From Chloroflexota bacterium (GTDB lineage: Bacteria; Chloroflexota; UBA11872; VXOZ01): a stretch of DNA of 64,000 nt. Positions 55,029-56,759 of the stretch are shown here, one piece after another. The first letter of the stretch is position 1; each line of letters begins with the position of its first letter. Position numbers and translations under genes: made by a program. The notes under the pieces are model-generated. The model was not told the origin of the DNA and searched no databases. It worked only from the letters and a program-made list of their open reading frames with translations. Location of the stretch: positions 96,001 to 160,000 of the forward strand of contig OZ219801.1 in NCBI GenBank assembly GCA_964291655.2, given 5' to 3'.

Positions 55029-55065
55029 GGGCGCCCCCAATGCGCTGGCTGCCGCCGTGTGTTGG

Positions 55066-55094
55066 TTGCCCGTCCCCACGTCCCGTGATAGAAT
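55066..55094 (+). promoter_or_regulatory. Sigma70 promoter of tRNA-Leu/greA
   Basis: TTGCCC-17 nt-TAGAAT with TGn extension. Confidence 0.65.
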
Positions 55095-55113
55095 CCCGCT
55101 GGGGACTGGTATC

Positions 55114-55198
55114 GCCGAAGTGGCGGAATTGGAAGACGCGCTACGTTCAGGGCGTAGTGGGCCTTGCGCTCGTGAGGGTTCGAGTCCCTCCTTCGGCA
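55114..55198 (+). tRNA. tRNA-Leu(CAG)
   Basis: Acceptor GCCGAAG/CTTCGGC, anticodon arm CTACG-TTCAGGG-CGTAG, long variable arm, GGTTCGAGTCC T-arm; followed by CCT (full CCA not encoded). Confidence 0.95.
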
Positions 55199-55254
55199 CC
55201 TCATAGGCCTGGTGGCTCGTGCGACCAACCATCAGAGAAAGGTTTGGAAAGACC

Positions 55255-56088
55255 ATGAGCACACAGGATTCTAATCAGTTGGGCCCTCTGTTTACGCAGT
55301 ACTTGCAAACAGTGGGCGTGGCAAACCTGAAGGGTGAAGAGGCCCGGCACCTCCGCAGATTTGTTAGTTGGTGCGGGCCGGACTCCCGAATAACATCGAT
55401 CTATCCCCACCAACTGCAGACCTATCTCGATCAAGTAACAGCGACCGCTGCCGATCCCAAGCCCTGTGCAAGTGCCTTGCGTACGTTCTTTTCCCATGCG
55501 CTGAAGTCTGACTGGGTAGAGAACAACCCCGCCACCGGTTTGCGAATCACCAAGCGCGCCACTAAGAGCAATTCCCGTGCCGCCGATGCTCAGGCCGGAA
55601 GCACTTTCATCAGCCGCAAGCGCTACGATGAATTGGGTGCTGAATTGAAGAACCACAAGAGTGAAGGACGCGAGCGCATCAGTAAGCTTCTGCATGCGGC
55701 CATCAAGGATGGCGATCTGCGTGAGAATGCGGCCTATGATGAGGCAAAGTATCAGCAAGGCATGCTGGAAGCCCGCATTCGCGAACTGGAGCAAACGCTC
55801 CGTACAAGCACGATTACCGAAGAGGAAGCACGGCCGGCAAACGGCGGTATTGACGCCGCCGACGAGGGCGTCAAGATTGGTATGCGCGTTGAATTGGAAT
55901 TGACTGACGGCAGTGAGACCATTGCTTATCAATTGGTTGGACCTTCCGAGGTCGACCCCCTTGAGGGCCGGATTTCGTACCTCTCTCCCGTTGGAGCAAG
56001 CCTCCTTGCCAAACGCGCCGGCGACACCGTTGCCGTGGAAACGCCTGCCGGAAGTGAGACCTATCGGGTTCTTAGCTACTCGTTCTAA
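55255..56088 (+). CDS. greA: Transcription elongation factor GreA with N-terminal integrase core-binding-like domain
   Basis: GDLRENAAYDEAK, ARIRELE, GRISYLSPVG; N-terminal ~100 aa LRRFVSW..LQTYL..SALRTFFS..NNPA. Confidence 0.88.
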   Translation: MSTQDSNQLGPLFTQYLQTVGVANLKGEEARHLRRFVSWCGPDSRITSIYPHQLQTYLDQVTATAADPKPCASALRTFFSHALKSDWVENNPATGLRITKRATKSNSRAADAQAGSTFISRKRYDELGAELKNHKSEGRERISKLLHAAIKDGDLRENAAYDEAKYQQGMLEARIRELEQTLRTSTITEEEARPANGGIDAADEGVKIGMRVELELTDGSETIAYQLVGPSEVDPLEGRISYLSPVGASLLAKRAGDTVAVETPAGSETYRVLSYSF

Positions 56089-56291: not shown

Positions 56292-56333
56292 ACGAGTGTA
56301 CCTGCCAAATATTGTCCACCAGAGGATGTCTTG

Positions 56334-56759
56334 ATGGAGACCATTGCTGCTGTTCTTAACTATGTCCTTGCGTTTCTTATCGCCTACTTTCTCGCGTTGT
56401 GGGTAGCCCTTGCCATCTGGGCATTCTATGACATTCGCACTCGCACCACTGACATATTGGTGCAGCTCTTCTCGGTTCTTCTCGTGCTGGCCTTCAATGT
56501 TTTCGGCCTCATTCTTTACTTGTTCCTCCGACCTAAAGATACGCTGGCAGAGGCAAACGTACTGGCGTTAGAAGAGGAGAGCTTCTTGGCCGAAAGCGAA
56601 TCCTTGTCGCGATGCCCCAATTGCCACTATCGCTTGCAACACGACTACCAGCTTTGTCCAATGTGCCAGCTTGAAATCAGAAGGCGCTGTACCGGCTGCC
56701 GGAATCTCACCGACTTGCAGTGGAGTGCTTGCGCCTACTGCGGGACGCCGGTCAACTAA
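56334..56759 (+). CDS. Membrane protein with C-terminal double zinc ribbon
   Basis: Two TM helices ending GLILYLFLRP; CPNC, CPMC, CTGC, CAYC. Confidence 0.85.
   Translation: METIAAVLNYVLAFLIAYFLALWVALAIWAFYDIRTRTTDILVQLFSVLLVLAFNVFGLILYLFLRPKDTLAEANVLALEEESFLAESESLSRCPNCHYRLQHDYQLCPMCQLEIRRRCTGCRNLTDLQWSACAYCGTPVN

Follow-up and report, generated by a model that had tools for sequence, protein, structure and literature searches.

A long GreA of Chloroflexota with a predicted recombinase-type core-binding domain at its N-terminus

Introduction

Gre factors are thought to be two-domain proteins that compete for the secondary channel of RNA polymerase from solution. Canonical GreA and GreB proteins, such as GreA of E. 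coli, correspond to the Pfam models PF03449 and PF01272 and possess a coiled coil with a D..E pair at its tip and a C-terminal globular domain. The protein described here shares all of these features. However, it is longer by about 116 N-terminal residues, which comprise a separate basic helical domain and a linker. A comparable layout is known from eukaryotic TFIIS, wherein a helical bundle (domain I) is joined by a linker to a channel-inserting domain that stimulates transcript cleavage, and wherein domain I serves as a protein-interaction module. Thus, both proteins carry an accessory helical bundle that is flexibly joined to a part that reaches the active site. They are not homologous, and the N-terminal domain (N-domain) of the long GreA differs from domain I in being basic and derived from a recombinase.

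There are two NCBIfam models in which GreA likewise forms the C-terminus of a larger fusion, namely PRK06330 ('transcript cleavage factor/unknown domain fusion protein', 718 positions) and PRK14720 (906 positions). However, these match the long GreA over its GreA part only (positions 595-703 and 752-898, respectively), and their N-domains are far larger and, as far as the model matches show, unrelated.

The second set of relatives is formed by tyrosine recombinases such as lambda Int, XerC/D, Tn1549 Int and Brujita Gp33, whose core-binding (CB, or SAM-like) domains share their fold and sequence profile with the N-domain. The shared features include the motifs L.RF..W.G and LR.FF..A and a basic tail after the last helix. 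Isolated recombinase CB domains bind DNA weakly, and CB domains of tyrosine recombinases also make protein-protein contacts. Unlike these enzymes, the long GreA lacks the R-H-R-Y catalytic domain, and what its N-domain is attached to is a transcription factor.

Folds derived from recombinases have been reused without recombination elsewhere, as in the phage repressors MrpR and SroF and in the ALOG and Ndc10 proteins. MrpR and SroF are described as inactive integrase-like repressors (PMC10516654; bioRxiv 10.1101/2025.11.27.690993) and ALOG domains as predicted specific binders (PMC3537659). Unlike the long GreA, both repressors retain the complete two-domain fold of an integrase in inactive form, whereas ALOG and Ndc10 are eukaryotic. 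None of the four is fused to a factor that enters the polymerase secondary channel.

In a literature search of main texts, no account of a fusion between GreA and a CB domain came to light, and it seems that such a protein has never been described or tested. Public records give these proteins the plain name 'transcription elongation factor GreA', and the extra domain is invisible to annotation-based work. One paper reports that a GreA of Dehalococcoides mccartyi (cbdbA743), of either the long or the short form, is expressed and is acetylated at K17 (PMC7918482).

Results

Gene structure and start codon

The gene is found in a stretch of 64 kb of Chloroflexota DNA, which we call the window. The sole tRNA gene that ARAGORN identifies in the window is a tRNA-Leu (anticodon CAG) at positions 55114..55200 of the + strand, and it is near-invariant across the genus. 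The first open reading frame (ORF) on the + strand after this tRNA ends with the stop codon at 56088 and could begin either at GTG 55219 or at ATG 55255. The ATG and a Shine-Dalgarno-like GGA located 7-9 nt before it (55246-55248) are invariant in all 11 loci of the genus. In contrast, the stretch between the tRNA and the ATG, GTG 55219 included, varies among these loci, two of which differ there by a 17-nt indel, and thus is non-coding. Because the ATG and the GGA are retained while the nucleotides before them vary, the comparison points to ATG 55255 as the start of greA.

This start defines a coding sequence at 55255..56088 (+) for 277 amino acids plus the stop codon, which is the very protein that the earlier note had quoted. 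That note also placed the gene close behind the tRNA, which is correct, and gave a spacer of 56 nt, which measures 54 nt (55201..55254, +). Full-length relatives retrieved by protein search are 31-98 % identical and all have 274-288 amino acids. Moreover, the frame is wholly open and conserved in all 29 loci from other genomes, with the N-domain and GreA residing in one ORF. Within the window's genus, pairwise comparison of 15 coding sequences (Nei-Gojobori) gives median dN/dS values of 0.10 for residues 1-100, 0.17 for the linker (residues 101-116) and 0.07 for the GreA part. These values show that the N-domain is translated and under purifying selection.

One alternative is that translation truly starts near 55600, as the earlier note had allowed, and that the upstream frame is an untranslated remnant of an integrase that once resided behind the tRNA. 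The position of the gene directly after a tRNA and the lack of any above-threshold Pfam match in residues 1-117 would fit such a relic. However, the conserved open frames, the low dN/dS of residues 1-100 and the invariant ATG and GGA all contradict it, as do two observations presented below: half of the best protein cluster representatives (75 of 150) carry the N-domain and a near-complete GreA in one protein, and the tRNA is absent from all 19 loci outside of the genus. We consider this explanation refuted and assign it only a negligible chance of being correct.

The GreA part

The C-terminal portion of the protein, residues 117-277, had been described as an intact GreA, and this description holds. 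The N-terminal coiled coil with its acidic tip (residues 117-187; 55603..55815, +) is matched by GreA_GreB_N (PF03449) at residues 118-187 with 69 bits relative to a cut-off of 24.5. The C-terminal globular domain (residues 204-274; 55864..56076, +), which is beta-rich in the structural model, is matched by PF01272 over exactly these residues with 73.2 bits relative to a cut-off of 26.9. Helices of the coiled coil span residues 121-151 and 159-184 in the full-length model. Between them lies the tip GDLREN with D154 (55714-55716) and E157 (55723-55725), both encoded on the + strand, which we take to be the counterparts of the tip pair D41/E44 of E. coli GreA. The tip residues are invariant in 17 of 17 aligned sequences, and the pattern D[LFI]xEN is retained in all 76 long forms that were compared.

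By Pfam criteria, the long GreA is a member of the GreA/GreB superfamily. The greA models of NCBIfam match residues 117-276, but none of these equivalog models reaches its curated cut-off, and the best (TIGR01462) attains 127.2 bits relative to 139. By NCBI thresholds, the long GreA is best viewed as a diverged member of the superfamily rather than an equivalog of canonical greA.

Sequence evidence for the ancestry of the N-domain

The N-domain corresponds to residues 1-100 (55255..55554, +) and is predicted to form a four-helix core-binding or SAM-like fold, with helices at residues 9-20, 27-40, 51-64 and 69-84 and a short additional helix at 92-95. The earlier note had proposed that about 100 N-terminal residues resemble the CB domains of integrases and that no catalytic domain follows. 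The latter statement is correct, since Pfam finds no match to the Phage_integrase catalytic domain (PF00589, R-H-R-Y) anywhere in the protein and residues 117-277 are GreA. The protein is therefore not an integrase and cannot carry out recombination.

Among NCBIfam models, the sole hints in the N-terminal region are XerC/XerD models that match residues 31-103 with E 0.008-0.05. The SAM-like models of Pfam give weak matches to single members of the family, of which the best is to Phage_int_SAM_5 (E 4.6e-4), and the window protein reaches 14.5 bits with these models, which is below the cut-off of 27. Because this score and the greA score (127.2 relative to 139) both fall short of their cut-offs, the N-domain and the GreA part each appear to have diverged.

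A profile made from 11 N-domain sequences recovers recombinases when compared to the chain sequences of the PDB. The leading matches are 5vfz (4.6e-5), 2kj5 (0.003) and 3nrw (0.034). The first of these is the integrase of mycobacteriophage Brujita, whose chain residues 31-116 align with profile positions 16-103, and the second is a phage-integrase N-domain. A larger profile of 30 sequences, built from the translations of the window and the related loci only, yields 14 PDB matches at E <=10, and seven of these are recombinase N-domains (5vfz, 3nrw, 2kj5, 2kd1, XerD 1a0p, 2kiw and 2key). In addition, the 11-sequence profile finds weaker matches (E 1e-4 to 1e-8) among 401 Chloroflexota genomes in ORFs of 320-410 amino acids. 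All six of the ORFs tested carry Phage_integrase and Phage_int_SAM_1, and the profile match falls on SAM_1. When the CB domains of these six Chloroflexota integrases are compared by hhalign with 30 N-domains, the two sets align over 93 columns with a probability of 98.5 % and E 1.9e-15.

Although the N-parts in a 17-sequence alignment are only 20-45 % identical to that of the window, residues F36, W39, G41, F78 and A82 are invariant. The N-domain is also consistently basic. Its pI is 9.39 in the window protein, with a median of 9.6 over 30 sequences, 28 of which have a pI >8.7, and the median net charge is +4. Position R35 is basic in 90 % of the 30 sequences, and R76, R97 and K100 are basic in 100 %. 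In the hhalign comparison, R35 and R76 line up with positions at which the consensus of the integrase profile is basic as well.

Predicted structures

An AlphaFold2 model of the N-domain, generated with the 30-sequence alignment, has four helices and a short fifth one (pLDDT 82.2, pTM 0.71). A Foldseek search of the PDB with this model gives no match at E <=0.001, and the best match has an E of 6.5e-3. However, ranks 1-33 are entirely occupied by recombinase core-binding domains and N-domains, or by structural-genomics and NMR fragments matched to them, and the top ranks include Tn1549 Int, lambda Int (TMq up to 0.74), XerD and Brujita Int.

A second, Foldseek-independent search (VIA) of 48,161 chains returns only recombinase N-domains at ranks 1-22, from lambda Int (Z 12.2) and XerD (11.4) down to XerA (7.5), with the first unrelated chain at Z 6.2, values that are to be read with the knowledge that helical bundles can reach a Z of ~13 by arrangement alone. 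The recombinase-derived proteins introduced above score 8.1 (MrpR), 7.9 (SroF), 5.9 (Ndc10) and 4.5 (ALOG). Since helical bundles can attain such scores without common descent, the claim of homology relies on the sequence profiles and the fold together, and it is the profiles rather than the fold by itself that carry it. Considered jointly, the PDB profile matches, the hhalign comparison and the top ranks of both structure searches, including the structural comparison that had been suggested, bear out the resemblance to integrases and indicate that residues 1-100 are homologous to the CB domains of tyrosine recombinases.

The model of the full-length protein (pLDDT 77.4, pTM 0.41) contains three confident modules, which are the N-domain (residues 9-95), the two coiled-coil helices and the C-terminal beta domain (residues 204-276). 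They are connected by low-confidence joins at residues 100-115 (pLDDT <50) and 191-201. The first join largely coincides with a basic, disordered linker formed by residues 101-116 (55555..55602, +), and R97 and K100, which are basic in all 30 sequences, are located just ahead of it. The low pTM and the disordered linker indicate that the domains are not packed in a fixed arrangement.

This architecture could also be explained by a protein-protein adaptor function, wherein the N-domain docks on a polymerase surface close to the rim of the secondary channel or recruits another factor in the manner of TFIIS domain I, and wherein recombinase ancestry is a mere matter of history. The succession of helical bundle, linker and channel-inserting part resembles that of TFIIS, and an undefined domain arrangement would suit an adaptor. 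The invariant residues named above are mostly hydrophobic or aromatic, as expected for a fold core or a protein interface, and CB domains of recombinases engage in protein-protein contacts as well. Against such a role stand the net positive charge conserved in 28 of 30 sequences and the four conserved basic positions, two of which are common to integrase CB profiles. The basic tail [RK]x..[RK] is likewise kept where integrases have a linker that crosses the DNA, and no conserved partner is found in the gene neighbourhood across the phylum. We therefore regard an adaptor as a doubtful explanation, albeit the most serious of the competing ones.

Distribution and origin

The fusion is widespread in Chloroflexota. 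There are 183 genomes among 401 (a tally that includes two unpublished ones) that are matched by the 11-sequence N-domain profile at E <=0.001. All 11 genomes of the window's genus match at about 1e-42 to 1e-45, and 71 further genomes, one of which (G227) is unpublished, match at E <=2.5e-9. The strong matches thus comprise 82 of the 401 genomes and represent 34 of 82 family codes, including the window's own family. In public named records, 27 loci (L033-L059) match both the N-domain and GreA, with the match beginning at query residue 1-33, and all derive from metagenome-assembled genomes (MAGs) of Chloroflexota/Chloroflexi, including Thermoflexus. In contrast, records from other phyla match from residue 109 onward only.

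A profile search of cluster representatives (1.84 billion) yields 345 matches at E <=1e-10 and 2226 at <=1e-3. Among the best 150 representatives of 50 % clusters, 75 carry a near-complete GreA, 21 carry a partial one and 54 have none. These 54 were considered as candidates for other architectures, but 29 of them are only <=144 amino acids long. Fourteen proteins (12 without a GreA match and two with a partial one) were inspected individually, and most were set aside as gene-call artefacts because they have Arg/Pro-rich tails that appear to be out of frame or are chimeras (MTHFR, thioesterase). Three (P0256, P0239 and P0252) were retained as real. Longer proteins were also retrieved by a word-indexed search, and all of its 62 matches at E <=1e-6 have precomputed GreA Pfam domains. 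The organisms named among these 62 are Dehalococcoidia (two records) or Chloroflexota (three records), and so the statement in the earlier note that long GreA proteins occur in Dehalococcoidia is supported.

The three retained proteins provide glimpses of the N-domain in other settings. P0256 (422 amino acids) is a true tyrosine recombinase with a tandem layout, in which a GreA-type N-domain (residues 2-99, profile E 6e-20) is followed by SAM_1 (140-205) and then by the Phage_integrase catalytic domain (228-387). The protein could be the source of the N-domain module or a recapture of it. In P0239 (220 amino acids) and P0252 (217 amino acids), the N-domain precedes a Cys-rich zinc-ribbon tail that takes the place of GreA. 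The tail has a weak match to DUF6300 (4.8e-5, below the cut-off), and the two proteins share their layout but differ in sequence. Perhaps the module has acquired another partner in the zinc-ribbon tail.

A maximum-likelihood tree of the GreA part (quick search, LG+G4) separates 76 long forms from 118 short forms by a single branch with an SH-aLRT value of 97, wherein the short forms include short paralogues from seven of the carrier genomes and were sampled by their similarity to the long GreA, which is a limitation. Together with the occurrence of the fusion across the families of the phylum, a distribution that had been put forward for checking, this single branch indicates that the fusion is old and arose once.

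The domain GreA_GreB_N is present in 397 of the 401 genomes (a tally that includes six unpublished ones). Each genome of the window's genus encodes two GreA proteins, the long form and a GreA of 154-158 amino acids on contig 2. A single GreA_N match exists in 23 of the 71 carriers outside of the genus, and all 23 of these genomes are small (0.9-2.3 Mb). Five of them that are 97-100 % complete were checked, and in all five a single ORF encodes the N-domain with GreA_N immediately after it. These five genomes thus have no Gre factor other than the long form.

In the window's genome, the short GreA (contig 2, 272662-273123, - strand) has a non-canonical tip, GGDLSDMGEY, wherein Asp-Met replaces the usual Glu-Asn. 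This tip is identical in 16 of 16 loci of the genus, counting the window's own. In other families of the class, the short GreA has tips such as GELSEGNE, GAFAEGGD or SDVSANGE, which contrast with the D[LFI]xEN of every long form. Cleavage may therefore depend mainly on the long form, and the short GreA may be a paralogue with a modified or regulatory role.

The long GreA is distributed in a patchy manner within the window's class. A second GreA match, located in an ORF of 280-404 amino acids, occurs in families f1, f83 and f84, and none was found in the genomes searched from f3 and f4 or in three of the four genomes from f2. In the remaining f2 genome (G010), the second GreA match is partial and falls in an ORF of 130 amino acids. 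In place of a long GreA, the f3 genomes of genus g5 encode integrases, and among non-GreA sequences the CB domains of these integrases are nearest to the module (E about 1e-7).

Genomic neighbourhood and promoter

The earlier note had described the gene as occupying the classic position of an integrase behind a tRNA. This part of its proposal finds no support. The tRNA-Leu(CAG) gene is directly upstream of the long greA in all 10 same-genus loci but in none of 19 loci from other families, where tRNA genes occur otherwise in two cases (two tRNA-Ser genes downstream of one locus and tRNA-Pro at another), and the fusion itself is old. A search of the 64-kb window for the 3'-terminal 27 bases of the tRNA returns a single copy, even with up to 3 mismatches allowed, and no att repeat or element genes were found in the window. 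The neighbours are ordinary genes for an aminotransferase, an MBL-fold hydrolase, a membrane protein with a double zinc ribbon, and RadC. Given the genus-only linkage, the single occurrence of the tRNA 3' end and these neighbours, the location behind the tRNA appears to be a lineage-specific accident of gene order rather than a trace of integration.

No neighbour is common to the long greA loci across the phylum. The gene directly downstream in the window (56331-56759, +) encodes a 142-amino acid membrane protein whose double zinc ribbon matches PF12773 with 34.2 bits, and such a protein adjoins the long greA in 10 loci (the window's own, L047-L053, L055 and L058). In seven loci of another clade, the same place is taken by an rsmG-like neighbour, as judged by eye from its motif.

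A consensus scan reveals a promoter-like site about 20 nt upstream of the tRNA (55066..55094, +) with the sequence TTGCCC-17-TAGAAT and a TG extension. Its columns are kept in nine of 11 loci of the genus, and the remaining two (L044 and L045) have TAGAAT farther upstream. The same scan detects neither a terminator-like nor a promoter-like site in the spacer at 55201-55254, and co-transcription of tRNA-Leu and greA is plausible. RNA contigs from four metatranscriptomes cover only the tRNA (55064-55201) and none of the coding sequence, and many are <95 % identical and hence come from other organisms. In nine RNA runs, just 5-6 % of the sampled words are present.

A further reading, a stronger one raised in the earlier note, makes the N-domain a sequence-specific DNA-binding module that directs GreA to certain promoters or other sites, or that autoregulates the tRNA-Leu/greA promoter. 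The conserved promoter-like site would fit this reading. CB-like domains can confer such binding, and the VIA matches include the repressors MrpR and SroF, while ALOG domains are predicted specific binders (PMC3537659). However, 23 of 71 carriers have no Gre factor besides the long form, which must therefore serve genome-wide. In addition, gene context differs by lineage, the tRNA linkage is specific to one genus, and surface residues of the N-domain are just 20-30 % identical across the phylum. Mainly because many genomes possess no other Gre factor, sequence-specific targeting is less likely than a general role, and we consider it improbable.

Discussion

The reading that we prefer is that the long GreA is a working Gre factor whose N-domain acts as a general nucleic-acid tether that raises the occupancy of the factor on elongation complexes. 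We assign a probability of about one half to this proposal, which draws on the sequence comparisons and the structural models. A general rather than gene-specific role is favoured because the long form is the sole GreA in many small genomes.

In this mechanism, the coiled coil would enter the secondary channel of RNA polymerase so that D154 and E157 reach the active site, and the C-terminal domain would dock on the polymerase, both as in an ordinary GreA. A positively charged four-helix domain is tethered to the N-terminus of the GreA part via a flexible basic linker of ~16 residues. According to published structures of Gre factors on polymerase, the Gre N-terminus presumably remains outside the enzyme, where the secondary channel opens and the downstream DNA is near, and a linker of 16 residues could therefore let the domain reach duplex DNA or the polymerase surface. 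The N-domain, by descent a recombinase CB domain but without recombinase activity, might make general contacts to nucleic acid that are weakly specific or non-specific, most plausibly to duplex DNA near the channel mouth. Such contacts would raise the occupancy of the factor on transcribing or backtracked polymerase. The data establish the architecture, the homology of both parts, the retained catalytic tip, purifying selection, a single old origin and the sole-factor status in many small genomes. We infer the cleavage activity, the binding of nucleic acid and the placement of the N-domain on the complex, and positive charge and fold do not prove that the N-domain binds DNA.

A more explicit version of this proposal is that Chloroflexota possess a DNA-anchored Gre factor, wherein the N-domain clamps duplex DNA and GreA travels with the polymerase or is pre-positioned on it. 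We put this version forward only tentatively. If true, GreA would be anchored rather than sampling the secondary channel from solution, and the protein would be a bacterial counterpart to TFIIS in its use of an accessory domain. Such anchoring would also account for the control of backtracked complexes in streamlined genomes with a single Gre factor, and perhaps in slow-growing cells wherein factor concentrations are low.

A widespread lineage has long kept a Gre factor joined to a recombinase-derived module that probably binds nucleic acid. This long retention, and the status of the protein as the sole Gre factor in many small genomes, point to another route by which cleavage activity reaches stalled polymerase. 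The long GreA is also a clean bacterial case in which a DNA-binding domain from a mobile element has been domesticated into the core transcription machinery.
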